Positions 20,207 to 43,519 of a DNA stretch of 64,000 bases are shown piece after piece. The translations under genes and the position numbers were made by a program. The notes under the pieces were generated by a model, which saw only the letters and a list, made by a program, of their open reading frames with translations, was not told the DNA's origin and did not search any database. The DNA comes from an uncultured Gaiellales bacterium (lineage in GTDB: Bacteria; Actinomycetota; Thermoleophilia; RBG-16-64-13). The stretch lies in NCBI GenBank assembly GCA_964497095.1, contig CAZCCL010000001.1, positions 348 to 64,347 on the forward strand, given 5' to 3'. The first letter of the stretch is position 1, and every line of letters begins with the position of its first letter.

Positions 20207-23200
20207 CTAAGACATCGCTTCTGCTACGAGCGCCTGTCCGTTTGAGTCCGGGCCGGTTCCCGGCTTCAGGATCACCCCGCGCTGATGCTTCCCGTCTATC
20301 TTGATGACCAAGGGGTGGGAGAAGTGGAGGTGCCGGACGAAGGCAGCCTCCTGCATAGACGACTGTCCCTCCAGCCATTCCCAATCGAGTATGCCCTCTC
20401 CGCTTTCCGGGTTGACCGTGAAGTACCCGACTCGGAAGGAGGTCAGGTTCTGGAAGAAGTGGCTGCCCTGGGAAGGGGTGACCTTGATGTCCTTCAGGCC
20501 TGATTCCACGATCACCCGGGCCCCGGAGATCTGCTCCCAGGTGACGGGGATGCCCAGCCAAGGATCGGCCGAGCCCCAGCGGCCCAACCCGATCAGGATG
20601 TAGGGGACGCCCCGGGCGGCCAATCCCGCGTTGAAGCGGGCGACCTCCATCGCGATGTCCTGGCATTTGGCCCGGTCGAAACTGGCGTGGTCCACCATGA
20701 CCACGTCTCTGATGTGCACAAGCGTGCCGTTACCGAGCACGCTGCTCGACCACACCAGCACCTTTTCCGGCTCGACGTCTTCGGTATCCAACTCCTCCGA
20801 CTCTCGGGACAGAGCCATGGGACGCATCTGCAGGAAGCCGAAATCTGCCAGGGCGTCGGTCGATTCGGGCAACTGGACGGCGAACTCTATCTCTACTTCC
20901 GTGTTCATCCCCCAGCGTCCCAACTCCAGCAGTCGGTCCAGCGCCGCGGGGAGGGGGACGCTGCGCTGCTTGAGGATGGGGGCAAAACTGACCAAGCGGA
21001 TGCCCGGCCGGGAGATGCCGTCGTAAACCGCGTCGTTCTCGGGCGAATAGGTGGAGGCGACCGGGCCCAGGGTGCCGTCGGTCTCGGCGACGGCCAGGGG
21101 ATGAGGCTGTTCGGTGGTCTCGTCGCTATTGCTGTGGAGTTCCAGAGCAATGAACTGCCGCTGCGAGTTGGCGAGCATGTCCTCGGGCGTCGAGAAGTGC
21201 ATGAGGTGCTGGGGATGGCGGGGGCTGAACGAAAGAGCCCGGCCCCCATCGACGACCGTGCGGCCGAGACCCAGCGCCATCGTCACCACCCCGTCCGCCG
21301 CCTCCAGAGGGGGAGAGGGGTAGAAGTTGTGCGAGCGGGCCACTCCGGCGAGCGACGGGTAGAAACGGGTCCCGTGCTGCGCTCCCACTAGCCTCTGGAC
21401 GATCACCGCCATCTTCTCTTCCTCCAAGAGGTATGGCGTGACTTTGAAGTAATTCTTGGCGTAGGTCAGGAAGGTGGAAGCGAAGACGCGTTTGACCGCT
21501 CCGATCAACTGACGGAGCCGGACCGCGCGTTCCGGGTGGTTGTTGGGCAGCATGTAAGTCTTGTACACGCCGGCCAGCGGCTGATACTGGGAATCCTCGA
21601 GCAGGCTGGACGAGCGGACCGCCAGGGGGTAGGGGACCAGGTCGAGGAAAGCTGCCAGTTTGCTCTCGATCTCCTCGGGGAACGAAGCAGCGAGGAACCG
21701 CTCCTCGATCCCCCGGTCGTCCTCGGTCCCCATCGCGAACGGACGGAGGTCGTTCTCTTGGAGAAAGCGGTCGAAGACGTCCGTGCCCAGCACTACGCAG
21801 GGGGGGACGGTTATCTGCATCCCCGGGAATTGCTCTATCACGCCGAAATCACGGAGTAGGTGGCGCACGAACGCTAAGGCTCTGGCCTTGCCGCCGAGCG
21901 ACCCCTCGCCGATGCGGGCGAAACTGTTCTCGGGATCGAAGGTGGCCGGGTCGAAATCGGTCACCGATTCCCTGGTCCGCTCGCGTCGGTAGGTGTCTAT
22001 CTGCTCGATGAGATAGCGGCGGCGGCTCTCGATGGTGTCGTAGTCGGCGGAAGTACGCGGCCGCAGGTGATGCGCCAAGCGGAACTCCGTGCGTGCCTTC
22101 AACCAGCGCGAGAAGTCGTTTCGCTCCGCATGCAAGGCGATCGATTCGGCCGGCACGGTCCGCAGCATCTCCAGCAGGCTCTTCATATCCTTGGCCCGGC
22201 CCACCGGGGTGCCGTCGGGCAGGCTAAAGACGAAGTCACCGAAGAAGAAGTTGTCCACCACGAACCGGCGGAGGTCTTGCAGGAGCGTCGGGGAGCCCTT
22301 CAGGAGAAAATCGGCTCCCATCTTCCGGGCCAGGGCTTCGCTCTCGGGACGGCTCGACTGGAGGAGGATGGGGATGTCCTTCCAGGCCTCCTTCACTCTG
22401 CGGGCGAACTCCATCCCCGCCTCGGGGTTCAAAGTGCCCTCTTGGGGGAACTCGATGTCGGAGATGACTCCGAGCACCTCCTCTTGATACGCGGAGAAAT
22501 ACTCCCATGCCTCCTCGAACGTGCTGCAGAGGAGGATCTTGGGGCGCGCCCGCATGCGGAGGATCTTGTGGGCCGTGTTGACGCCTTCGGCTATGAGGCT
22601 CTGGGAGTGGTGGATGATCTCCGTGTAGATCATGGGCAGGAAGGCAGAGTAGTAGCGGATGTTGTCCTCGATGAGGAGGATGACCTGGATGCCCGCCACA
22701 CCCGTGTCGTAGGCGACGTTCAGCTTGTCCTCGATGTACTTGGTGATGGCCAGGAGGATGCGGGAGTCCCCTTCCCAGAGGAAGATGCGCTCGATCTCCG
22801 AGGTATCGCGGTGAGACATGAACTCGGCCAGCTCGCCGCCGTCGTAGGCCAGGATGACCACGGGGATGTCGAGACCTGCCGCTCGGGCCTCGCGCGCCAA
22901 CTCGACGGCGTTCATGTCGCCCAAGTTCACCGCGCTTACGATGAGATTGAAGCGGCTCTCCGCCTTGGCCAGGGCGATGGCCTCGGCGCCGCTGGACACG
23001 TGGGTGAGCCCGGTCGTGTGGTGAAGGTTCAGGTCGAGGAACTCGCCCAGTAGCAACTCGCTCAGTTGGCCGTCTTCCTGCAGGATGAAGGTGTCGTAGG
23101 TGCTCGACACCAGGATGATGTTCTCAACCCGGCGGGCCATGAGGTACTGGAAGTCGTATGCGTGACTCCAGTCCAGCTTCATCGGCTGGGTCGCTTCGGA

Positions 23201-23236
23201 CATGTCCCGCGCGCCGGCCTCGATGGCTACCGGCAC
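20207..23236 (-). CDS. Large PEP/pyruvate-binding (PPDK_N-type ATP-grasp) domain protein with two N-terminal receiver-like domains
   Basis: C-terminal half has a PPDK_N-like nucleotide-binding signature (IGEGSLGGKARALAFV…VVLGTDVFDRFL…). The N-terminal half contains two CheY-like segments (…ILLIEDNIRYYSAF…VISDIEFP…). No swivel His domain is recognised. Confidence 0.5.
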   Translation of the reverse strand: MPVAIEAGARDMSEATQPMKLDWSHAYDFQYLMARRVENIILVSSTYDTFILQEDGQLSELLLGEFLDLNLHHTTGLTHVSSGAEAIALAKAESRFNLIVSAVNLGDMNAVELAREARAAGLDIPVVILAYDGGELAEFMSHRDTSEIERIFLWEGDSRILLAITKYIEDKLNVAYDTGVAGIQVILLIEDNIRYYSAFLPMIYTEIIHHSQSLIAEGVNTAHKILRMRARPKILLCSTFEEAWEYFSAYQEEVLGVISDIEFPQEGTLNPEAGMEFARRVKEAWKDIPILLQSSRPESEALARKMGADFLLKGSPTLLQDLRRFVVDNFFFGDFVFSLPDGTPVGRAKDMKSLLEMLRTVPAESIALHAERNDFSRWLKARTEFRLAHHLRPRTSADYDTIESRRRYLIEQIDTYRRERTRESVTDFDPATFDPENSFARIGEGSLGGKARALAFVRHLLRDFGVIEQFPGMQITVPPCVVLGTDVFDRFLQENDLRPFAMGTEDDRGIEERFLAASFPEEIESKLAAFLDLVPYPLAVRSSSLLEDSQYQPLAGVYKTYMLPNNHPERAVRLRQLIGAVKRVFASTFLTYAKNYFKVTPYLLEEEKMAVIVQRLVGAQHGTRFYPSLAGVARSHNFYPSPPLEAADGVVTMALGLGRTVVDGGRALSFSPRHPQHLMHFSTPEDMLANSQRQFIALELHSNSDETTEQPHPLAVAETDGTLGPVASTYSPENDAVYDGISRPGIRLVSFAPILKQRSVPLPAALDRLLELGRWGMNTEVEIEFAVQLPESTDALADFGFLQMRPMALSRESEELDTEDVEPEKVLVWSSSVLGNGTLVHIRDVVMVDHASFDRAKCQDIAMEVARFNAGLAARGVPYILIGLGRWGSADPWLGIPVTWEQISGARVIVESGLKDIKVTPSQGSHFFQNLTSFRVGYFTVNPESGEGILDWEWLEGQSSMQEAAFVRHLHFSHPLVIKIDGKHQRGVILKPGTGPDSNGQALVAEAMS

Positions 23237-28966: not shown

Positions 28967-29566
28967 GTGAGCGTTACCGTGCTCGGCTTGGCAGGCAGCG
29001 CCCGCCGCGGGGGGAACACCGAGACCCTCCTCGACTGGTGTCTGGCGGCAGCTGCAGGGGAGGGTGCCGAGGTGGTCAAGTTCCGGCTCTGCGACCTCGA
29101 ACTTCACGGCTGCCGGGCCTGCGAGTCCTGCTCGCGTGACGGCGTGTGCGTGGTCAAGGACGACATGCAGTCGCTCTATCCGCACCTTAGAAGGGCCGAC
29201 TCTATCGTGCTGGCCGCCCCGGTCTACTCCATGGGCATACCGGCGGTACCCAAGATGGTCATCGACCGCTGCCAGCCCTTCTGGGCGCTCAAGTACGTGC
29301 TCAAGCAGGCCGTCGCCGAGCCGGGTGGCCGGCAGAGGTTGGGGGCGTTCCTCAGTTGTGCCGGGACCTCGTTCAGCTATGTCTTCGACGGCTGCCGGCT
29401 GGTGATGCGCACCTTCTGGCACATGCTGGAGGTGTCGCCGGCCGGAGACCTGCTCTGCCCGGGAGTGGATGCCAAGGGAGACATACTCGAGCATCCCGAG
29501 GCCCGGGAGGTGGCCGAGGATATCGGTCGGCGTCTGGGGCGCGGGCGGGGTCCGCGCACGGGTTGA
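28967..29566 (+). CDS. Iron-sulfur flavoprotein (Isf-like NADPH-dependent FMN reductase fold with compact Cys motif)
   Basis: MSVTVLGLAGSARRGGNTETLL… flavodoxin-like start. CRACESCSRDGVC compact 4-Cys motif typical of Isf. Confidence 0.7.
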   Translation: MSVTVLGLAGSARRGGNTETLLDWCLAAAAGEGAEVVKFRLCDLELHGCRACESCSRDGVCVVKDDMQSLYPHLRRADSIVLAAPVYSMGIPAVPKMVIDRCQPFWALKYVLKQAVAEPGGRQRLGAFLSCAGTSFSYVFDGCRLVMRTFWHMLEVSPAGDLLCPGVDAKGDILEHPEAREVAEDIGRRLGRGRGPRTG

Positions 29567-29821: not shown

Positions 29822-30025
29822 ATGGAGAAACGCTTGCAGCGGTCCCGGACCGAGAAGATGCTCGGCGGGGTTTGCGGAGGTCTGGCGGCTTATTTCGGCG
29901 TGGATCCCACCTTGGTGCGGGTCCTCTGGATCGCCATGACGCTGATCGTCGGGGTGGGGATCCTGCTTTACCTCATCCTGTGGGTGGTGATGCCCCTAGA
30001 GGCTCCCGCGCAGCCCTTGGACTGA
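29822..30025 (+). CDS. PspC-domain membrane protein
   Basis: …[52 protein letters not shown] matches the PspC domain consensus. Confidence 0.65.
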
Positions 30026-30817
30026 CGGCCGGGGCGGGACGAAGCCGTAGGGCAGCTCCAGATCGTAGGCCGCGAGTAGAGGTTCGTTCAGCAGTATCTC
30101 CTCGATCGGCCCGTCCGCTACGACCCGGCCCTCCGCCAGGATAAGCGCGCGCTCGCACAGTTCGTAGGCGACCGGTAGGTCGTGAGTCACGACGATCTTC
30201 GTGACCGGCAGATCCTGCAGGATGTCGATGAGCTGCCGCCGGGACTTGGGGTCCAAGTTGGAGGAGGGTTCATCCAATACGAGGACCTCCGGACGCATGG
30301 CAAGCACGGTCGCCGTGGCCACCCGCTTCTTCTGACCGAAAGAAAGATGATGAGCGGGCCGGTCTTCGTAGCCCTGCATACCCACGGCGGCGAGTGCTTC
30401 TCTGACTCGCAGGAGGATCTCGTCTTTCTCCAGACCCATGTTGACCGGGCCGAACGCCACATCCTGAGCCACGCTGGTGAGGAACAGTTGATCCTCGGGG
30501 TCCTGGAAGACCACCCCTACCCTGCGCCTTATCTCACGCAGATTCTTGTCCTCGACGTTCAGGCCGAACACGCGGAGACTTCCCGTCCCCCGCAGGATGC
30601 CGTTGAGATGAAGGAGAAGGGTGGTCTTGCCGGCTCCGTTCGGACCGATGATGGCCACCGACTCCCCCTGTTGTACGTTGAAACCGACCCCGCGCAACAC
30701 TTCGGTACCGTCCGGATAGGCGAAATGGAGGTCTTCGGCCTCCACAGCCGGCGGCTTTCCTCCGACCAAGGACAGCTCGGTCAAAGGGTGCGGCCTCGGG
30801 CTCCTCCCGTCTTTCAC
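29996..30817 (-). CDS. cbiO: ECF transporter ATPase (CbiO/EcfA)
   Basis: GPNGAGKTT Walker [17 protein letters not shown] signature, [11 protein letters not shown] Walker B. GTG start overlaps the cbiQ stop (GTGA). Confidence 0.85.
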
Positions 30818-31590
30818 AGTGACGACACCGCGCGGACGGAGACAACGAGTAGCAAGAGGCCGCCGAGGAACACGGCGTCGGTGGTCCGAAAGCGGCCCCC
30901 CTCGACCAGTCTCACCGTGCCGTCGTAGCCCCGGCTGAGCATGGCCACGTACACGCGCTCCCCGCGGCTGTAGCTGCGGAGAAACAGCGCGCTCAACATG
31001 TAGCCGAGGGTGGGAGCGTTCCAGAGCCACCGGGCTCGGTAGTTGCGGGCGGTCATGGCTCGGCGCATGCGCCGCAGTTCGTCGGCGAACACAAAACTGT
31101 ACCGGTACATGAAGCTGACTATGAGCACGAAGACCTTGGGTGTCTTCAGGCGCTCGAAACCGGACACCATCTCGGCGAAGGATGTGGTCGAGCTCAGGAT
31201 GATCATGCTGATCACGCCCAGAATGGCTTTCGCTCCCACGTTCCAGAGGACGAGCAGGCCTTCACCCGTGACCCGCATGCCCCCCAGGCTGTAGCCGCCG
31301 CCCCCCGCTTGGTGGAAGAAGGGGAGGAAGATGGCTACCACTAGGATGAAGGGCAACACCACCAGGGCGCGTCGGAGCACGTGCTTGAGGGGGAGGCGCG
31401 AGACCCCGATCAGGAAGAACAGGATGCCGGCGTAGAGCGCGTAGGGCCACATGGGTAGAGCCGGCGTGGTGACCACCACCACCGTGAAGCCGATGAATCC
31501 GAGGATCTTTGCCCGGGGATCGAGACGGTGCAGCGGGCTTTGCTCCGCGCGGATCTCGGTCAGGAAGGAGTCGGCCTCGATCAGCGCCAT
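30814..31590 (-). CDS. cbiQ: ECF transporter transmembrane T component (CbiQ/EcfT)
   Basis: 258-aa polytopic protein with CbiQ-like features (…LDPRAKIL…LSRGYDG…). ATG at 31590. Confidence 0.8.
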   Translation of the reverse strand: MALIEADSFLTEIRAEQSPLHRLDPRAKILGFIGFTVVVVTTPALPMWPYALYAGILFFLIGVSRLPLKHVLRRALVVLPFILVVAIFLPFFHQAGGGGYSLGGMRVTGEGLLVLWNVGAKAILGVISMIILSSTTSFAEMVSGFERLKTPKVFVLIVSFMYRYSFVFADELRRMRRAMTARNYRARWLWNAPTLGYMLSALFLRSYSRGERVYVAMLSRGYDGTVRLVEGGRFRTTDAVFLGGLLLLVVSVRAVSSL

Positions 31591-31622
31591 AGTGCAGTCG
31601 TCCTCACAGGATCGAGCCGGGT

Positions 31623-32693
31623 CTAGGATCGGCCGGAGGGCCCAGAAGGCGGCAAGTCGCGGATCTCGTCGTTCCTCCTCGCAGGCTGGGTGGCTGGGGT
31701 CATGCGCCGGCCTCTTCCACCAAGCGCACGGCCGGCCAGGACCACGAGCCCGAAGAGTACGACCGTGCCCGCCAGACCGGCGATGGCCGTAGCCACCCTC
31801 TCGTTGCCGACTCCGGGCAGCTGGTAGTCGCCGAGTGGAGAAAGACCCCACGTAGGTTCCTCAGCAGCCGCCTGTTCGAATCCCCTGTCCGCTGCGACCT
31901 TCTCCAGGCCATCGGGAGAGCCGGAGGCGAAGGGCGAGACGAACACCGCCAGGGCGACGGCGACGACCAGCGCACCGGCGACGAACGACCAGAAGCGCGC
32001 CCTTCCACTCATGCGCATGCCTGGTCGTCCGGCGGCGCGGCGCACCGTCTCACGAGGTAGGTCGAACGTCTTGACCAGATCGGGGCGGGTGGCCAGGACC
32101 GCAGCCACCACAGCCGTGGTGATCAGGGCCTCGCCGACGGCTATGACCATGTGTACGGAGACCATCGCGGGTAGAGCGATACGGAGCGGCGTGGTCCCGG
32201 AGACGGCCAGTTCGGCCGAAGCCACGGCCGAAGCTGCGACCACCGATATCCAGGAAGCCACGGCTACCGAGACCAAGTAACCGGACAGAGTGCGAGGAAG
32301 GAGCCTCTTCAGTCCAACGAAGACTGCATACCCGACGAAGACCGCGACCACGCCCATGTTGAACACGTTGGCTCCCAAGGCGGTGATGCCCCCGTCGGCC
32401 ATACCCAAGGCCTGGACCACGAGGACGACGGTCATCACAATCGGGGCCGACCACACTCCCAGAAGTGCGACGGCGAACATCGCCCCCAGAAAGTGCCCGC
32501 TTGTGCCGCCGGCGACGGGGAAGTTGAGCATCTGAGCGGCGAAGATGAAGGCCGCACCGACCCCGAGCAGCGGCACGGTCCTCTCGCCCAAGTCGTTCTT
32601 GGTCTTGTGGACCGCGTACGCCACCGTCCCAAGCGATACCGCTCCGGTCGCGACTGCAGTGGGGATGTTTACGAACCCGTCAGGGATGTGCAT
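31623..32693 (-). CDS. cbiM: CbiM/NikM substrate-capture component fused to PDGLE (CbiN-like) domain
   Basis: MHIPDGF… N-terminus diagnostic of CbiM/NikM. C-terminal roughly 130 aa contains the PDGLE motif plus two TM helices. AGGAG RBS. Confidence 0.8.
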   Translation of the reverse strand: MHIPDGFVNIPTAVATGAVSLGTVAYAVHKTKNDLGERTVPLLGVGAAFIFAAQMLNFPVAGGTSGHFLGAMFAVALLGVWSAPIVMTVVLVVQALGMADGGITALGANVFNMGVVAVFVGYAVFVGLKRLLPRTLSGYLVSVAVASWISVVAASAVASAELAVSGTTPLRIALPAMVSVHMVIAVGEALITTAVVAAVLATRPDLVKTFDLPRETVRRAAGRPGMRMSGRARFWSFVAGALVVAVALAVFVSPFASGSPDGLEKVAADRGFEQAAAEEPTWGLSPLGDYQLPGVGNERVATAIAGLAGTVVLFGLVVLAGRALGGRGRRMTPATQPARRNDEIRDLPPSGPSGRS

Positions 32694-32708
32694 CGCTCTC
32701 CTCTGCTC

Positions 32709-33161
32709 CTAGTCTTCCCGGCAGGCGCTGCAGAGGCCGAAGACTGTGACTTCGCGGGTCGCAAAACCCTGGTCTTCAAGCAAGGTGGTACCCAGGCCTC
32801 CCAGATCCTCGTCGTGCACGTGGGTCACCCGACCGCACGTTTCGCAGACCAGGTGGTGATGGGGGACCTCTTCTTCCACCTCGAAGAAGCGCCGAGTGGG
32901 ACCGAGGTGGGTCTCCCGGACCAGATGAAGGTCGACCAGCAACTCCAGAGTGCGGTACACGGTGGACATGTTGATGTTCGGAAACCGGTCCTGCACCCGG
33001 GCACAGACCTCTTCGGCGCTCATATGCGAGCCGTGCTCGCGGAGCACATCCCATACCAAAGTGCGCTGGGGGGTCAGTCTGTACCCCATCTCGTGGAGCG
33101 TGCGGGTGGCATGATGGGTCACGGTTCTTGCAAGCTTATTGCAATAGCCTTTTGTTGTCAA
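32709..33161 (-). CDS. nur: Fur-family metalloregulator, probably nickel-responsive Nur
   Basis: Fur-family DNA-binding helix (…YRLTPQRTLVWDVL…) and metal-site HHH/Cys residues (…HHHLVCETCGRVTHVHDE…). Directly precedes cbiMNQO. Own promoter carries a Nur box. The start is ambiguous: TTG at 33161 or GTG at 33122. Confidence 0.7.
   Translation of the reverse strand: MTTKGYCNKLARTVTHHATRTLHEMGYRLTPQRTLVWDVLREHGSHMSAEEVCARVQDRFPNINMSTVYRTLELLVDLHLVRETHLGPTRRFFEVEEEVPHHHLVCETCGRVTHVHDEDLGGLGTTLLEDQGFATREVTVFGLCSACRED
33128..33144 (-). promoter_or_regulatory. Nur-box-type operator TTGCAA-N5-TTGCAA overlapping the nur promoter -10
   Basis: Perfect TTGCAA-gctta-TTGCAA read from the sequence, matching the published Nur box (tTGCaa-N5-ttGCAA). 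Located in the nur leader. Confidence 0.55.
33133..33161 (-). promoter_or_regulatory. Putative nur promoter TTGACA-17 nt-TAAGCT (valid only if nur starts at GTG 33122)
   Basis: Perfect -35 hexamer with 17-nt spacer read on the minus strand. Under the TTG-start model the -35 is instead codons 1-2. Confidence 0.3.
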
Positions 33162-33488: not shown

Positions 33489-34556
33489 ATGGAGGCGATC
33501 CCGAGGCTGACCACGCTCTCGCACGGTTCGGGCTGAGCGTGCAAATTGGGCCCCAAGGACTTGGGGCAGGTGATGGAGATGCTGCCACGCGTGGGTGATC
33601 CCGCTCTGCTCGTGGGCGCGGATACGTTGGACGATGCGGCCGTCTACCGCGTGACGGGTGAGATCGCCCTGGTGCAGACGATCGATTTCTTCACGCCGGT
33701 GGTCGACGACCCCTACGATTTCGGTCGTATCGCCGCCGCCAACGCTTTCTCCGACGTCTACGCCATGGGCGGCCGGCCCCTGACCGCGCTCAATATTGTG
33801 TGCTTCCCTTCGGGGGTCCTGCCGTTGGAAACCCTGGGGAGGATCCTGCAGGGCGGGGCGGAGACGGCTCGGCTCGCCGGGGCTACCATCGTTGGTGGGC
33901 ACACCATCGACGACCCCGAACCCAAGTATGGGCTGGCCGTCACCGGCGTGCTGGAGCCGGGCCATGAGCTGACAAACGCCGGCGCCAGGCCAGGCGACGC
34001 CCTCATCCTCACGAAGCCGTTGGGTACCGGGGTGATCTCGACCGCCATCAAGCAGGGGACCGCCTCTGCCGAGGCCATCGCGGCCGCCACCGCCTCCATG
34101 GCGACTCTCAATCGGGGCGGGGCCGAGGTAGCTCGTGCTTGCGGTGCCCATGCGCTCACGGACATCACCGGCTTCGGCCTCCTGGGCCACCTCAGCGAGT
34201 TGTGCCGGGCGAGCGGGGTGCTCGCCGAGGTGTGGTACGACCGGTTGCCCCTGCTGGTCCAAGCAGAAGCACTGGCCCAGACCGGGGTCGTCCCGGGCGG
34301 CACGAGACGCAACCTGGAGTATGTGCAGCCCTGGACGGCGTTCGACCCCGAGTTGGAGCCTTGGCAGCACCTCCTGTGCGCCGATGCGCAGACGTCCGGC
34401 GGTCTCATTCTTGTGGTCTCGCCTGAGAAGGTGCCGGAAGCACTCGAGGCGCTGACGGCCGGAGATACCCCGGCTGCGGTGGTCATCGGCCGGGTCATCA
34501 CCAGGGAGGAAGCAAAGGGGTCCCTACTCACAGTCGGATTCGCCGGAACCGGGTGA
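33489..34556 (+). CDS. selD: Selenophosphate synthetase (selenide, water dikinase), selenocysteine-containing form; UGA-Sec at 33534-33536
   Basis: With ATG at 33489 the N-terminus reads MEAIPRLTTLSHGSG-U-ACKLGPK…, matching the SelD consensus SHGAG(C/U)GCK with TGA at the Cys17 position. The rest is a full AIR-synthase-like SelD body. The ORF caller started at 33546. Confidence 0.9.
33550..33567 (+). other. SECIS-like hairpin GCCCCAA-GGAC-TTGGGGC, 13 nt downstream of the selD UGA
   Basis: 7-bp perfect stem with GGAC loop read from the sequence. Confidence 0.6.
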
Positions 34557-34577: not shown

Positions 34578-35042
34578 TCAAACAGGCTGGACCGCGATCC
34601 GGTCGAGCAGCACCGACAGGCTCACCGTGGTGCCTCCCCCGGGAGCACGGGCGAAGCTGACCTCGTCCATGAGCGCCACCATCAGCGGCATCCCCAGACC
34701 CCTGTTTCGGGCGTCTTCCCGGGCTGGGGTTAGCCTGCGGAACGGGCCGTTGTCGGTCACGACGAAGGTCAAACGCCGGGCCTGCAGCCGGGCGCTGATC
34801 TCCAGGGGGAGAGAGTGGCCGCCGGCATGCTCGACGGCGTTGGCGCAGGCCTCGGAGACGGCCACCTTGCAGTCGAAGATCCGCTCCAGGTCGAGCGCGG
34901 CTTCACCAGCGGCCTCCTCCACGAACCGTCTTATCTCCGCGAGACGCGCCGTCTCCGCTTCAACGCGGATGACACGGTGGAACGTGAGATCGTCCGCGGA
35001 TCTCAGATCGTCAAGCGGCCGCAAGTCGTCTGTGGGTATCAA
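34578..35042 (-). CDS. rsbW: Anti-sigma factor / serine protein kinase (RsbW/SpoIIAB-like HATPase_c)
   Basis: …AVSEACANAVEHAGG…LTFVVTDNG…GLGMPLM… is typical of GHKL anti-sigma kinases. Overlaps the upstream antagonist gene. Confidence 0.7.
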   Translation of the reverse strand: MIPTDDLRPLDDLRSADDLTFHRVIRVEAETARLAEIRRFVEEAAGEAALDLERIFDCKVAVSEACANAVEHAGGHSLPLEISARLQARRLTFVVTDNGPFRRLTPAREDARNRGLGMPLMVALMDEVSFARAPGGGTTVSLSVLLDRIAVQPV

Positions 35043-35392
35043 GCCGTCACTTGTCCCTCTAGGGCGGCAGAAGCCGTCCCTTTATCCTCAAACAATTGAA
35101 AGCTGGGGTCGACGAGCAACCCCACGATCTCCAGCAGACGACGGACGTTCGCATTCGGGCCGATGACCCCGAGCGTCCCACGGTCCCGCATGAGGCGCAC
35201 CCCGGTGAGAAGCACCGACAGCCCGCCGCTATCGATGTACGTGACTTGACTCAGATCGAGAAGGACATTGCCGCTGCCCGTCTCCAGAGCCTCGGCAAGG
35301 GCCGTCTCGATGGAGCCGCAGGTACTGTGATCTATGTCTCCCCAAGCCTCGATGAGCGGCGTCTCGCCGAGACTGGTCACCCTTACATCCAT
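35039..35392 (-). CDS. rsbV: Anti-sigma factor antagonist (STAS domain, RsbV/SpoIIAA-like)
   Basis: 117-aa STAS protein with the conserved phospho-Ser context (…LDLSQVTYIDSGGLSVLL…). Confidence 0.75.
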   Translation of the reverse strand: MDVRVTSLGETPLIEAWGDIDHSTCGSIETALAEALETGSGNVLLDLSQVTYIDSGGLSVLLTGVRLMRDRGTLGVIGPNANVRRLLEIVGLLVDPSFQLFEDKGTASAALEGQVTA

Positions 35393-35431
35393 AGCCGCCA
35401 GGTCGATCGGGTTTCGCTCAATGTGTCGCTA

Positions 35432-35456
35432 ATACCCGCGTGACGACATACTAAAC
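35432..35456 (-). promoter_or_regulatory. Sigma-B/sigma-F-type promoter GTTTAG-13 nt-GGGTAT upstream of rsbV
   Basis: Read on the minus strand: GTTTAGtatgtcgtcacgcGGGTAT. Matches the GTTTAA-N12-14-GGGTAT consensus of the general-stress sigma. Lies about 40 nt before the rsbV ATG. Confidence 0.55.
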
Positions 35457-35501: not shown

Positions 35502-36629
35502 TCAAAGCAGCTGTTCCACCGTGGTCAAGGAATAGCCGTGGGCGAAGAGCCAGTCGACGATGACCGGGATGGCCGCCACCGTCTGCGAGCGGTTCTTTCC
35601 GCCATCGTGCATGAGGACGATGGCGCCCGGTTTGGTCTGGGCTTTGACATAGGACATGATGGAGTCCACGTCGGGATACTCCCAGTCCCGGGTGTCTACG
35701 GTCCACATGGCTATACGCAGTCCCTGCGCGCGGGCCTCGGCCGCCACGGCGGCGTCGTATATACCGTAGGAGGGCCGCAGGAAGCGGCACCCTCCGATCA
35801 CGGCATTGGTCCGCGAGATCTCGCTGCGCAGTCTCTCCGGACTCACCTCGGTGAGGATGACGTGGCTCCAGGTGTGGTTCTCCACCTCGTGACCGGCGGC
35901 CTTCATCTCCTTGATCATGGCTTTGTTTCCGGCGGCAGCGCTGCCCAAGACGAAGAAGGTGGCCGGCACGTGCTTGGCCGCCAGAGCATCCAGCACCGCC
36001 TGTGTGAACTCACCCGGACCGTCGTCGAAGGTCAGGGCGGCCAGCTTCTGTCCCGGCTTCGCCGACGTGCTGAGTTGGACGACCATGTTCTGCGGAGGCG
36101 ACAGCATGAACGCCGCCGCCTGCTTTCCGCTGGCCGACCCCACAAAAAGCTGCCGCTCGCCCGAGGTGCCGGACTGCACGAGGCTGACGATGGGTCCGCT
36201 GCCTTCGTAGACGGTCTCGAAGGGTATGGCTTGAGTCTTCTGCTTTATGGTCTCGAGCCTGTGCTCGCCGTGGCGTACCTGCACGAGGGCTCCGTCGGTG
36301 AGAACGGAGCCTTCGGACAGCGGGAGGCCGTCGATCTCTCGCGTGGCCGGGACCCCCTGCCCCATGGATAGCACGTCCCCCGTTAGGTCCAGAGTCGATC
36401 CGGGTCGGGCGAGCAGGGCCGAGATCTCGCCGAGGTCGGCGGCTGTAACGGCCGGGGGGACAGAGTAGGTCCCGCCGTTGACTTGAACCAAACTGCGGGT
36501 GTTGAGGTGGGCAGTCGGTAGTAGCAGGTAGGCCAGAGCTGAAAGGACGACCACGCCGACTATCAACAGCGGTAGATGTCGGCGGGATCTACGGCCTGGA
36601 GGGCGCTGGGTCGCGATGCTGGTCTCCAT
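35502..36629 (-). CDS. Polysaccharide deacetylase family protein (NodB domain) with N-terminal membrane anchor
   Basis: …ALTFDDGPGEFT…FFVLG…HEVENHTWSHV… NodB motifs. N-terminal TM helix. Confidence 0.8.
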   Translation of the reverse strand: METSIATQRPPGRRSRRHLPLLIVGVVVLSALAYLLLPTAHLNTRSLVQVNGGTYSVPPAVTAADLGEISALLARPGSTLDLTGDVLSMGQGVPATREIDGLPLSEGSVLTDGALVQVRHGEHRLETIKQKTQAIPFETVYEGSGPIVSLVQSGTSGERQLFVGSASGKQAAAFMLSPPQNMVVQLSTSAKPGQKLAALTFDDGPGEFTQAVLDALAAKHVPATFFVLGSAAAGNKAMIKEMKAAGHEVENHTWSHVILTEVSPERLRSEISRTNAVIGGCRFLRPSYGIYDAAVAAEARAQGLRIAMWTVDTRDWEYPDVDSIMSYVKAQTKPGAIVLMHDGGKNRSQTVAAIPVIVDWLFAHGYSLTTVEQLL

Positions 36630-36909
36630 GGTGGCGCCTGATTATCCCCCAAACCTCGATGGGCGGCAAATCGGAGAAGTCGGCCAAGGCCCGGATCCTC
36701 AATAGGGCCGCTGCGGACGTCAGAGTAGTCCGCGTTCAGGGCTGCTTCCTCGCCGCGAGTCTCATAGCGCATCATGGTCCGCTCGGACTGTGAGGTGCGC
36801 GATCTTGTTGGATATTTCGGGATTTGTTAACAGTTCCCTCATATTCCTGCACGAGACTGGACCCGGCAACGCGGTATCGGCGAACAAGGAGGTGTGTGCC
36901 TTGAGGGGT

Positions 36910-37317
36910 ATGTGGAAACGCAGATGGCTCTTGATAGTCCTAGCGCTGGTGATCTTCTTGTCGGTGGGGGCAGTGGCTTGGGCCGCCGGCAACGATGACG
37001 ACCAGCCGGTTGCGGGCGGCCCCCAGGTCGCGGCCGATCTGAAAGTCCTGACCGCCGCCGGCGGGCCGGGGCCACTGACGCGGGAGGCACTGAAGGAGAA
37101 GCGGCAGCAACGGGCCGAGCGCCGGAAGGCGATGCTGGAACTGGTCGAGGAAAAGATGAGCGCCGAAGACCAGGCAGCATATGACCGGCTGGTCAAAACG
37201 GCCGAAGAGCAGCGTGAGGCGCTGAAACAGGCCAGGGAGGCTCTCAAGTTCACTCTCGAAGAGCTCCGTGATCTGACCGATAAGTATCTTGGCTTGGGCG
37301 ACGGGCCGGCCGGCTAG
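36910..37317 (+). CDS. Small secreted/anchored coiled-coil protein of unknown function
   Basis: Signal-peptide-like MWKRRWLLIVLALVIFLSVGAVAWA then a charged helical region. The start is uncertain. Confidence 0.35.
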   Translation: MWKRRWLLIVLALVIFLSVGAVAWAAGNDDDQPVAGGPQVAADLKVLTAAGGPGPLTREALKEKRQQRAERRKAMLELVEEKMSAEDQAAYDRLVKTAEEQREALKQAREALKFTLEELRDLTDKYLGLGDGPAG

Positions 37318-41259: not shown

Positions 41260-41421
41260 CGGTTCGTTCGCGTTCGGAGCGGAATGAGTGCTTGGAAATG
41301 AAGCGACCTCTGCTGCCCGCCGCCGATGGCAGGCTCCAGCAGAGAGGATTCCGGGGCTTTCTTTCGAAAAGGTAATCATTCTAGACCTAGGCAATCCCCA
41401 TTCGACCAAAGGGAGCGTTGT

Positions 41422-42180
41422 TTGGCCAAAGTATTGGCCTTCGCGAACCAGAAGGGCGGCGTGGCGAAGACCACGACCACTCTCAATCTGGGCGTAGCGT
41501 TCCAAGAGTTGGGTCACCGGGTGCTCACGGTGGACATGGATCCCCAGGGCAATCTCACCATGAGCTTGGGGCTGAATCCCAACGACGCGCGGCCCAGCAT
41601 GTTCGACGTCCTCGTGAACGGGGTGAGCATAGAGGACGTTCTCGTTCAGCGGGAACTGGATGTAGCGGTGGCGAGCATCGATCTGGCCGCGGCGGAGATC
41701 TCGCTGAGCTCGTTGATCGGCAGGGAGAGGATGCTGAGCAAGGCGCTGCTCGAGGTGCGCGACCGCTATGATTTCATTCTGATCGACACGCCTCCCTCTT
41801 TGGGCCTGCTGACGGTGAACGCGCTCACTGCTGCCGACGGGGTGATCGTCCCCGTGCAGTGCGAATACCTCTCGCTACGGGGTCTGGCTCAATTGGAGCG
41901 GACTCTCGAGCTGGTACGAGACAATCTCAATCCCAAGGTCCATATTGCCGGGATCGTGGCCACTATGTACGATTCTCGTACGATTCATGGACGGGAGGCC
42001 GTCGAGGTGCTCAGGAACAGCTTCGGCGACCTCGTGTTCGAGACGACGATCATGAAGACCATCAGGTTTGCGGAGGCGCCGGTCAAAGGGGAATCGGTGC
42101 TCAAGTACGCTCCAGGAAGCAAGGCCGCTCAGGCGTATCGGCAGCTCGCGAGAGAGGTGCTCAATGGAAAAGAGATCTAG
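41422..42180 (+). CDS. ParA/MinD-family P-loop ATPase (orphan ParA-like)
   Basis: MAKVLAFANQKGGVAKTTTTLNLG… deviant Walker A. 252 aa. TTG start with GGGAG RBS. No parB nearby. Confidence 0.8.
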   Translation: MAKVLAFANQKGGVAKTTTTLNLGVAFQELGHRVLTVDMDPQGNLTMSLGLNPNDARPSMFDVLVNGVSIEDVLVQRELDVAVASIDLAAAEISLSSLIGRERMLSKALLEVRDRYDFILIDTPPSLGLLTVNALTAADGVIVPVQCEYLSLRGLAQLERTLELVRDNLNPKVHIAGIVATMYDSRTIHGREAVEVLRNSFGDLVFETTIMKTIRFAEAPVKGESVLKYAPGSKAAQAYRQLAREVLNGKEI

Positions 42181-42181
42181 C

Positions 42182-43519
42182 ATGAAAGACAGCGGCCTCA
42201 GCTCTCTGTTCAGGGCGACGGAGGCGGGTAAGCCCGGCGAGGAGCAGGCCTCCGTCGCCGCCGAAGGCGAGGCCGATCTCACGGCTCAGGCCGCGACGCA
42301 GGCAGAGGATGGACCCGAGGCCGAGAGCGCAGTCTCCGAGGACGTGGAAAGCCCTTGGGACATGCCGTCCCACCCCAGCACCGGCCGTCGGACCCTGATT
42401 CAGCCTTCACGGAGCTTTCCTGCCGTCATCCGGGTCGTCGGGGTGGGGGGCGCGGGAACGAACGCCATCAACCGCATGCTCGAGGCCGGGCTGGAAGGGG
42501 TGGAGTTCATCGCCATCAACACGGACGCCCAGGCGCTCAACATGTGCGAGGCCGACCACAAGCTGCGCATCGGTCGGGAGCTGACCAAGGGCTTAGGAGG
42601 CGGCTCCGACCCGAGGGTAGGACGGGAGGCGGCCGCCGCTGCCTACGACGAGATCAAAGGCGTGCTCAAGGGCAGCGATATGGTGTTCATCACGGCCGGT
42701 GAAGGGGGCGGCACCGGTACCGGTGCCGCGCCGGTGGTGGCCGAGATAGCCAAGTCCTTGGGCGCGCTCACCATCGGGGTGGTGTCGCGGCCGTTCATCT
42801 TCGAGGGCAAGCGCCGTGGCCTGCAGGCTCTCGAGGGCGTCCGGGTCCTACGGCAGAAGGCCGACACGGTCATCGTCGTCCCCAACGACAAGCTTCTCGA
42901 GGTCGCCGACAGAGGCACCTCGATGGTGGCGGCGTTGCGGCTGGCGGATGACGTGCTCCGTCAGGGCGTGCAGGGGATCTGCGACCTGGTCACCGTTCCG
43001 GGGCTCATCAATCTCGACCTGGCCGACGTGCGCACCATCATGACCGGCGCGGGCACGGCCCACATGGGGATCGGCCGCGCGCGAGGCGAGCAACGTTCTC
43101 AGAAGGCGGCGGAGATGGCCATCAACTCCTCTTTGCTGGAGAGCTCGATCGAGGGTGCCCGGGGGATCCTGCTCAACGTCAGCGGGGGGCAGGATCTGTC
43201 GCTTCACGAGGTCAACGAGGTGGCGGAGATCGTCAATGCCGCTGCCGATCCGGAGGCCAACATCATCTTCGGCGCTGTCGTGGACGAAGCTTTGGGCGAT
43301 ACTCTATGGGTGACGGTGGTCGCCGCCGGGTTCGATGCGACAAGCGAAGAGATCTTGACCGAGCAGGTGGTCAGCGCCACGAGACATGATCATCCCCAGG
43401 CGGTGGGCACCCCTCAGCGAGTCGCTCCCGAGTTTGTCCCCACTGAGGAGGTCCGTGCGGAGCCCGACGGGATCGCGGGCCCCGAGGACGAGCTGGAGGT
43501 CCCGCCGTTCCTAAGGTAG
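42182..43519 (+). CDS. ftsZ: Cell division GTPase FtsZ with about 90-aa acidic N-terminal extension
   Basis: GGGTGTG tubulin signature, T7 loop, C-terminal conserved peptide DELEVPPFLR. ATG 2 nt after the parA-like stop. Confidence 0.9.
   Translation: MKDSGLSSLFRATEAGKPGEEQASVAAEGEADLTAQAATQAEDGPEAESAVSEDVESPWDMPSHPSTGRRTLIQPSRSFPAVIRVVGVGGAGTNAINRMLEAGLEGVEFIAINTDAQALNMCEADHKLRIGRELTKGLGGGSDPRVGREAAAAAYDEIKGVLKGSDMVFITAGEGGGTGTGAAPVVAEIAKSLGALTIGVVSRPFIFEGKRRGLQALEGVRVLRQKADTVIVVPNDKLLEVADRGTSMVAALRLADDVLRQGVQGICDLVTVPGLINLDLADVRTIMTGAGTAHMGIGRARGEQRSQKAAEMAINSSLLESSIEGARGILLNVSGGQDLSLHEVNEVAEIVNAAADPEANIIFGAVVDEALGDTLWVTVVAAGFDATSEEILTEQVVSATRHDHPQAVGTPQRVAPEFVPTEEVRAEPDGIAGPEDELEVPPFLR

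Follow-up and report, generated by a model that had tools for sequence, protein, structure and literature searches.

A two-gene operon of the partner-switching type lies on the minus strand of the window, by which we mean the whole 64-kb stretch of DNA that was analysed. A STAS-domain antagonist is encoded first and a GHKL kinase second. A promoter-like element and a polysaccharide-deacetylase gene precede the operon, and selD faces it from the other side. The features are, in the direction of the operon:

36629..35502, minus strand: upstream polysaccharide-deacetylase gene (Pfam Polysacc_deac_1)
35451..35456, minus strand: −35 box GTTTAG, read directly from the sequence
35438..35450, minus strand: spacer TATGTCGTCACGC, 13 nt, of kept length and variable sequence among relatives
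35432..35437, minus strand: −10 box GGGTAT, read directly from the sequence
35422..35426, minus strand: predicted transcription start, placed by the usual −10-to-start spacing
35039..35392, minus strand: rsbV/spoIIAA-type anti-sigma-factor antagonist, 117 aa (Pfam STAS/STAS_2, NCBIfam TIGR00377)
34578..35042, minus strand: rsbW/spoIIAB-type GHKL serine kinase, putative anti-sigma factor, 154 aa (Pfam HATPase_c_2)
33489..34556, plus strand: convergent selD, the 3′ boundary of the operon (NCBIfam selD, 5.6e-111)

From the stop of the deacetylase gene (35502) to the ATG of the STAS gene (35392) there is a gap of 109 nt; the element GTTTAG-N13-GGGTAT lies within it, 45 nt after the stop. With a start of transcription predicted ~6–10 nt past the −10 box, the 5′ UTR would be ~30 nt long. 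A sigma-70-type (housekeeping) promoter was sought in the 109-nt gap and none was found. Likewise, no Rfam family matches the promoter/5′ UTR region, and none reaches threshold in the whole 64-kb window. Further down, the TTG start of the kinase gene overlaps the stop of the STAS gene, and the stop of the kinase gene (34578) lies 21 nt from that of selD. An intrinsic terminator after the kinase gene was considered and rejected, the fold being no stabler than those of shuffled sequences (z = +0.43).

This layout agrees with the first-pass annotation, which had described the minus-strand motif about 40 nt before the STAS antagonist (39 nt from the −10 box to the ATG by direct reading), the overlap of the antagonist and GHKL kinase genes (4 nt, TTGA) and their RsbV-like and RsbW-like nature (Pfam and NCBIfam matches). 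Its statement that the operon ends against convergent selD with no sigB/sigF gene also holds, given the 21-nt gap and a window in which no Sigma70 domain was found.

Several neighbouring genes deserve a separate mention. The selD gene is longer than the mechanically called ORF: an upstream in-frame ATG lies at 33489, preceded by GGAGGTG, and the extended start reads MEAIPRLTTLSHGSG-[TGA]-ACKLGPKDL, with the in-frame TGA at 33534..33536. We take this UGA to occupy the position of the catalytic Cys/Sec in the N-terminal loop of SelD, and the window SelD is probably a selenoprotein. The NCBIfam selD model was matched only from model position 16, which fits a longer N-terminus. A 7-bp hairpin (GCCCCAA/TTGGGGC, 33550..33567) begins 13 nt after the UGA; the fold at the UGA is no stabler than shuffles (z = −0.31), and Rfam gives no SECIS match near it. 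Back-to-back with selD lies a minus-strand block (29996..33161) consisting of a Fur-family regulator gene (Pfam FUR) and three ORFs which by eye resemble the cobalt transporter components CbiM, CbiQ and CbiO. The block is syntenic in many relatives, and no cobalamin riboswitch was matched by Rfam at threshold in the 64-kb window.

On the other side, a 175-aa ORF without Pfam match (36790..37317, plus strand) combines an N-terminal hydrophobic segment with a charged, coiled-coil-like C-terminal part. It is kept at 34–65% identity in most related loci, directly before the genes of an OmpR-type regulator and a HAMP histidine kinase, and its product may assist this two-component system in an accessory or periplasmic role. 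A functional link between the two-component system and the antagonist–kinase pair, considered by analogy with RsfSR of M. smegmatis, is not supported, as the region is broadly syntenic and the regulator is of the OmpR type, not REC-PP2C. The two-component system is missing in four of the loci long enough to show it (L003, L013, L014 and L020), all of which contain the pair.

Two further ORFs of the window are recorded here. A 1009-aa protein (20207..23236, minus strand) carries a PPDK_N domain (pyruvate phosphate dikinase/PEP-utilising, ATP-binding) and an N-terminal match to the receiver domain, which is weak (28.9 bits versus a Pfam cutoff of 30.2). Such a receiver-like plus PPDK_N architecture is uncommon. 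Lastly, the FtsZ ORF (42068..43519, plus strand) runs into the end of the ParA/MinD-like gene before it (41326..42180), and ~120 residues come ahead of its tubulin/FtsZ domain; the true FtsZ start is probably farther downstream than 42068.

The antagonist and the kinase

With 117 aa, the STAS protein has the size of a single-STAS-domain antagonist of the RsbV/SpoIIAA type (~110–120 aa). It matches Pfam STAS_2 at 3.3e-15 and scores 55.1 against the NCBIfam superfamily of anti-sigma factor antagonists, TIGR00377 (cutoff 53.45). Sequence matches in the PDB include SpoIIAA and the mycobacterial RsfB. Ser55 is aligned with the first serine of the SpoIIAA ‘MDSSGL’ motif (1TH8_B), which we take to be the phosphorylated Ser58. 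The residues D54-S55-G56-G57 (DSGG) are invariant in 31 of 31 orthologues and follow the D-S-x-G pattern of RsbV/SpoIIAA antagonists, with Ser55 as the predicted phospho-acceptor.

The kinase belongs to the GHKL fold class (Pfam HATPase_c_2, 4.2e-25) and has the N-box, G1 (DxG) and G2 (GxG) motifs of ATP binding. Across 19 orthologues, E64 and N68 of the N-box, G99 of G1 and both glycines of G2 (G115, G117) are invariant, and D97 of G1 is nearly so (at least 90%). The NCBIfam equivalog models are matched far below their cutoffs: 49.1 for NF003144 (cutoff 145), 43.8 for TIGR01925 (135) and 39.4 for TIGR01924 (155). The RsbA model is also matched below its equivalog cutoff. With scores so far under the RsbW and SpoIIAB cutoffs, the protein is treated here as a member of the family and named neither RsbW nor SpoIIAB; for the same reason, sigma binding by the kinase is taken as putative.

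Structural comparisons point to the same family. The solved structures closest in sequence are RsbW of Bacillus subtilis (6M36) and the RsbW domain of Rv1364c. An AlphaFold model of the kinase was obtained with a pLDDT of 76 and a pTM of 0.72. In Foldseek searches its top matches are RsbW (6M36), SpoIIAB (1TID/1L0O) and UsfX (8JZT/8IH8), ranked before any histidine kinase, and the superposition on 6M36 gives an rmsd of 1.6 Å at ~30% identity. The invariant Arg38 is aligned with an arginine of the N-terminal helix of RsbW, and presumably is equivalent to the partner-binding Arg20 of SpoIIAB.

An N-terminal extension of ~12 residues, found within kinase residues 1–20 (34983..35042, minus strand), is confined to the closest relatives, and most orthologues begin ~12 residues later. 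Its I-P-x-D-D motif is kept among the relatives that have the extension. In the model, residues 1–4 and 6–15 are below a pLDDT of 50. The RsbW3 protein of Mycobacterium smegmatis likewise carries an N-terminal extension (PMC7693655).

The promoter element and the operon among relatives

When homologues of the kinase were searched for, many relatives at 60–89% identity were obtained from uncultured Actinomycetia and Thermoleophilia. The comparison set was drawn from a scan with one genome per species and comprises 30 loci with kinase identities of 51–81%; the MAGs of origin bear the labels Actinomycetes, Thermoleophilia or Gaiellales. Together with the window, this gives 31 sequences.

Chance occurrence in the window is a first consideration. 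The pattern GTTT-N14-17-GGGTAT is found once in 64 kb against 0.11 expected, and at least one match appeared in 9 of 100 shuffles. With relaxed patterns the motif at 35456..35432 is still the sole intergenic match, and no further regulon member was detected in the window. The related loci provide an empirical background: over 575,778 bases on both strands (~1.15 Mb of strand, window and 30 loci), four strict matches lie off target. At this rate, ~4e-4 matches would be expected on the correct strand of the 109-nt gap. One of the four, GTTTCT-N12-GGGTA in L014 (12751..12729, minus strand), stands directly before the ribosome-binding site and start of an FMN-reductase gene, whose orthologue in the window is the NADPH-dependent FMN reductase at 28967..29566; it may mark another gene of the regulon in that species, unless the match is due to chance. 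The other three are intragenic or probably due to chance.

The motif is kept before the STAS gene in most of these sequences. A strict match to GTTT-N14-17-GGGTA precedes the STAS start codon in 24 of the 31 sequences, and in 21 of these it is found 64–72 nt from that codon. The seven exceptions carry degenerate variants at the same place, namely GGGAAA, AGGAAA, GGGATA, a −35 box reading GATTCG, or a 16-nt spacer. As the anchored alignment had picked its rows by the motif, all 31 upstream regions were also aligned with MAFFT without selection on the motif. There, GTTT and GGGTA are conserved at 90% or more and AG at 80% or more. Apart from these, only the ATG, an A shortly past the −10 box and some positions of a GGTG-like ribosome-binding site reach 80–90% or above.

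What lies between and around the boxes has diverged. The mean pairwise identity is 0.39 in the spacer versus 0.92–1.0 in the boxes, and spacer and flanks together range from 0.32 to 0.39. The length of the spacer is nevertheless constrained: most sequences (20 of 31) have 13 nt and the others 14–16 nt. Such a pattern is what a promoter with two recognition hexamers and a spacer of constrained length should leave in alignments. Depending on the lineage, the motif is preceded by a deacetylase gene, gcvPB (glycine cleavage) or a P-type ATPase gene; since the upstream gene changes while the motif stays, the element travels with the STAS gene. In one MAG (CAWEJM01) two copies of the locus, L005 and L031, were found on separate contigs. 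In the L031 copy, the promoter spacer measures 16 nt and the matches to kinase and selD are fragmented; a duplicate in decay, heterogeneity among strains, or an artefact of binning or assembly could each explain this.

The class of the promoter is indicated by its boxes and spacing. GTTTAG corresponds to the −35 sequence (GTTTaa/GTTT) of the SigB/SigF class, GGGTAT to its −10 sequence GGG(T/A)A(T/A), and the 13-nt spacer to its usual 12–14 nt. The consensus of B. subtilis SigB is GTTTAA-N12-14-GGG(A/T)A(A/T), and promoters of the GTTT...GGGTA class are also read by the nine SigB homologues of Streptomyces coelicolor (PMC8346170). For M. smegmatis SigF, the consensus is GTTT-N14-19-GGGTA, with N15 and N16 as the commonest spacings in the table of PMC4694148. 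In mycobacterial notation, the motif of the window becomes GTTT-N15-GGGTA and falls inside this range. The proposal of a SigB/SigF-type promoter is thus backed both by conservation in the 30 related loci and by its fit to the consensus, and GTTTAG-N13-GGGTAT is well supported as a bona fide-looking member of the class.

The gene content of the operon is as constant as its promoter. The kinase gene is the last one of the operon in each of the 31 sequences. In the relatives the operon is followed by convergent selD, which is the arrangement in most related loci, by an opposite-strand MFS transporter gene or by an FMN reductase gene. Two places in which a missing partner might have been overlooked were rejected as candidates: the 1.5-kb gap between kinase gene and selD of distant loci holds the opposite-strand MFS transporter gene and no sigma gene, and the ~3 kb before the STAS gene of loci that lack the deacetylase hold gcvPA/gcvPB or a P-type ATPase gene instead of a phosphatase or sigma gene.

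Searches for a sigma gene in a wider range gave the same picture. By Pfam, neither a Sigma70 domain nor a PP2C/SpoIIE phosphatase domain was found in essentially all sizeable ORFs of the 64-kb window. With an approximate B. subtilis SigB sequence as probe, phmmer gave no sigma factor among the window ORFs of the six frames, and no sigma-like ORF was found with this probe within ±10 kb of the 30 related loci. The negative result for the flanks is weaker than the Pfam one because the probe was not validated on a known sigma factor. The locus therefore departs from the canonical rsbV-rsbW-sigB and spoIIAA-AB-sigF operons, in which the sigma gene directly follows the kinase gene, and corresponds to an orphan pair, that is, a two-gene antagonist–kinase operon away from a sigma gene. 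Since this layout is kept in the 30 loci, the two-gene unit is the conserved state of the clade and not the outcome of a local deletion.

Proposed mechanism and alternatives

We consider that the operon encodes a trans-acting partner-switching module, itself part of a SigB/SigF-type regulon whose sigma factor is encoded elsewhere, and give this reading a probability of about 0.7. RNA polymerase with a group-3 sigma factor of the SigB/SigF type, encoded elsewhere in the genome, would recognise the promoter and transcribe a translationally coupled STAS–kinase operon from it. In the resting state the kinase would phosphorylate the antagonist on Ser55 and thereby inactivate it; in the version that we favour, it would also sequester the sigma factor. 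A PP2C-type phosphatase, likewise encoded elsewhere, would dephosphorylate the antagonist. The unphosphorylated antagonist could then capture the kinase, and the sigma factor would be freed. As the operon would itself be read by this class of sigma factor, activation would in turn change how much antagonist and kinase is made.

Four elements of this scheme are inferred: the sigma dependence, the identity of the sigma factor, the binding between kinase and sigma factor, and the phosphatase. The conserved promoter is indirect evidence that a SigB/SigF-type sigma factor exists in the lineage. Furthermore, the term ‘autoregulated’, which had been applied to the pair, is appropriate only if the pair controls the very sigma factor that reads the operon promoter.

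The part of the scheme most exposed to an alternative is the role of the kinase. It might be a dedicated kinase of the STAS protein and not an anti-sigma factor, in which case the antagonist would act on another, possibly kinase-dead, RsbW protein encoded beside the sigma gene. In M. smegmatis, the rsfB-rsbW2 operon is located away from sigF and offers a direct precedent: RsbW2 is reported to be the sole kinase of RsfB and not to bind SigF, and RsfB acts on RsbW1, the true anti-sigma factor encoded beside sigF (PMC7693655). The kinase of the window, with all its ATP-binding motifs, would be of the kinase-positive type like RsbW2, and its scores below both the RsbW and SpoIIAB equivalog cutoffs are compatible with such a function. 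Against this, RsbW of Bacillus and SpoIIAB, the closest solved structures, are at once kinases and anti-sigma factors, and Arg38 lines up with the arginine of the RsbW N-terminal helix. Moreover, a second RsbW-like gene was not seen within the small part of each genome that is visible. On balance, a dedicated STAS kinase is a serious alternative, though the less probable one.

It appears rather unlikely that the stress network of this clade, a deep-branching and largely anaerobic one among the actinobacteria, has been permanently rewired, such that the sigma factor is made independently and only antagonist and kinase are under its control, or that the output is not a sigma factor. A rewired network would provide pure negative feedback, without the positive sigma autoregulation of Bacillus and M. 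tuberculosis.

Taken by itself, a non-sigma output would mean that the pair controls some other target, for instance a secretion system, an enzyme or a process of development, with the STAS protein or the kinase as effector, and that the promoter only puts the module in the stress regulon. Partner-switching modules without an identified sigma factor do exist, and a non-sigma output was proposed for RbaV/RbaW of R. capsulatus (PMC3999984). The lack of any sigma gene within 10 kb of the pair in the 30 loci, as searched with the approximate SigB probe, is in line with such a role. We nonetheless hold it to be quite unlikely, as the strongly conserved SigB/F-type promoter implies a sigma factor of this class in the lineage, and the operon, with its variable neighbours, comes without a conserved candidate target gene. 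In addition, a SigB/F-class sigma factor is, to our knowledge, under this type of module in every well-studied Gram-positive case.

Finally, the two boxes could in principle be the half-sites of an operator at fixed spacing, or owe their similarity to chance or to the common descent of these sequences, but this is highly improbable given that GTTTAG and GGGTAT form neither a direct nor an inverted repeat, unlike the operator of a dimeric regulator, that both hexamers and their spacing fit an established promoter class exactly and at a promoter-like distance from the start codon, that they were kept while their surroundings diverged to ~35% identity and the upstream gene was replaced in several lineages, and that the background amounts to only four matches per 1.15 Mb of strand.

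Comparison with known partner-switching systems

An antagonist/anti-sigma pair uncoupled from its sigma gene had been singled out by the first-pass annotation as notable. This view is overstated: unlinked rsbV/rsbW-type genes, some of them SigF-dependent, are on record from M. smegmatis (PMC7693655, PMC4694148), from S. coelicolor (PMC8346170) and from further phyla (PMC3999984). New here are the uncultured lineage, which to judge by the MAG labels is probably related to the Thermoleophilia, and the quality of the promoter footprint; the type of system is already known.

Two likenesses to M. smegmatis are apparent. As in rsfB-rsbW2, which belongs to the same phylum, an antagonist and an RsbW-type kinase with intact motifs are encoded together in an operon that lies apart from the sigma gene. 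As with rsbW3 and MSMEG_6541, unlinked partner-switching genes stand behind a GTTT-N15-17-GGGTA promoter and would belong to the regulon of the sigma factor itself. The gene rsbW3 is unlinked and SigF-dependent, with the promoter GTTT-N17-GGGTAA (PMC7693655); the antagonist gene MSMEG_6541 is equally unlinked, has GTTT-N15-GGGTA and is down in a sigF mutant (PMC4694148). In the parts of these two sources consulted, a SigF promoter is reported for rsbW3 and MSMEG_6541 and not for rsfB-rsbW2. The neighbourhoods differ as well: a REC-PP2C protein and a histidine kinase are encoded beside rsbW2, whereas the two-component system near the present pair is of the OmpR type and not tightly linked. Orthology to the M. 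smegmatis pair is unlikely since the similarity holds only at the family level.

In M. tuberculosis, the usfX-sigF locus shares with the window a SigF-type promoter before an RsbW-family gene, and UsfX (8JZT/8IH8) is among the top fold matches of the kinase. There, however, sigF follows usfX and the antagonists are encoded elsewhere. RsbW1, the UsfX homologue of M. smegmatis, is described as not phosphorylating RsfB and as clustering with kinase-inactive anti-sigma factors (PMC7693655). The kinase of the window has all the ATP-binding motifs.

BldG of S. coelicolor is another actinobacterial antagonist encoded apart from a sigma gene, in an organism where the GTTT...GGGTA promoter class is read by SigB homologues. 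The bldG gene is presumably co-transcribed with a downstream anti-sigma-like gene, with no sigma gene in the unit. BldG (SCO3549) is a pleiotropic antagonist that several kinases phosphorylate, and its gene lies apart from those of the sigma factors affected; the genome encodes 17 RsbV, 45 RsbW and 9 SigB homologues (PMC8346170).

The rsbV-rsbW-sigB-rsbX unit of B. subtilis resembles the operon in three respects: a SigB-class promoter directly before the antagonist gene (in B. subtilis an internal, SigB-dependent one), the order of antagonist and kinase, and their translational coupling. It also supplies, with RsbW (6M36, ~30% identity), the closest solved structure to the kinase. The differences are that sigB and rsbX are absent after the kinase gene, and that the kinase scores below the RsbW equivalog cutoff. 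In B. subtilis, the ratio at which sigma factor, anti-sigma factor and antagonist are co-synthesized shapes the response (PMC5207722). A fixed ratio of the three partners cannot apply to an operon that lacks the sigma gene.

The conserved footprint thus represents a high-confidence alternative-sigma promoter in a lineage for which metagenome-assembled genomes are the sole source. The motif is a usable seed for stress-regulon prediction by genome searches with GTTTAG-N13-GGGTA. Compared with the B. subtilis unit, the operon is a natural example of an antagonist and a kinase made without co-synthesis of a sigma factor, and as such it bears on synthesis-ratio models of partner switching (PMC5207722).
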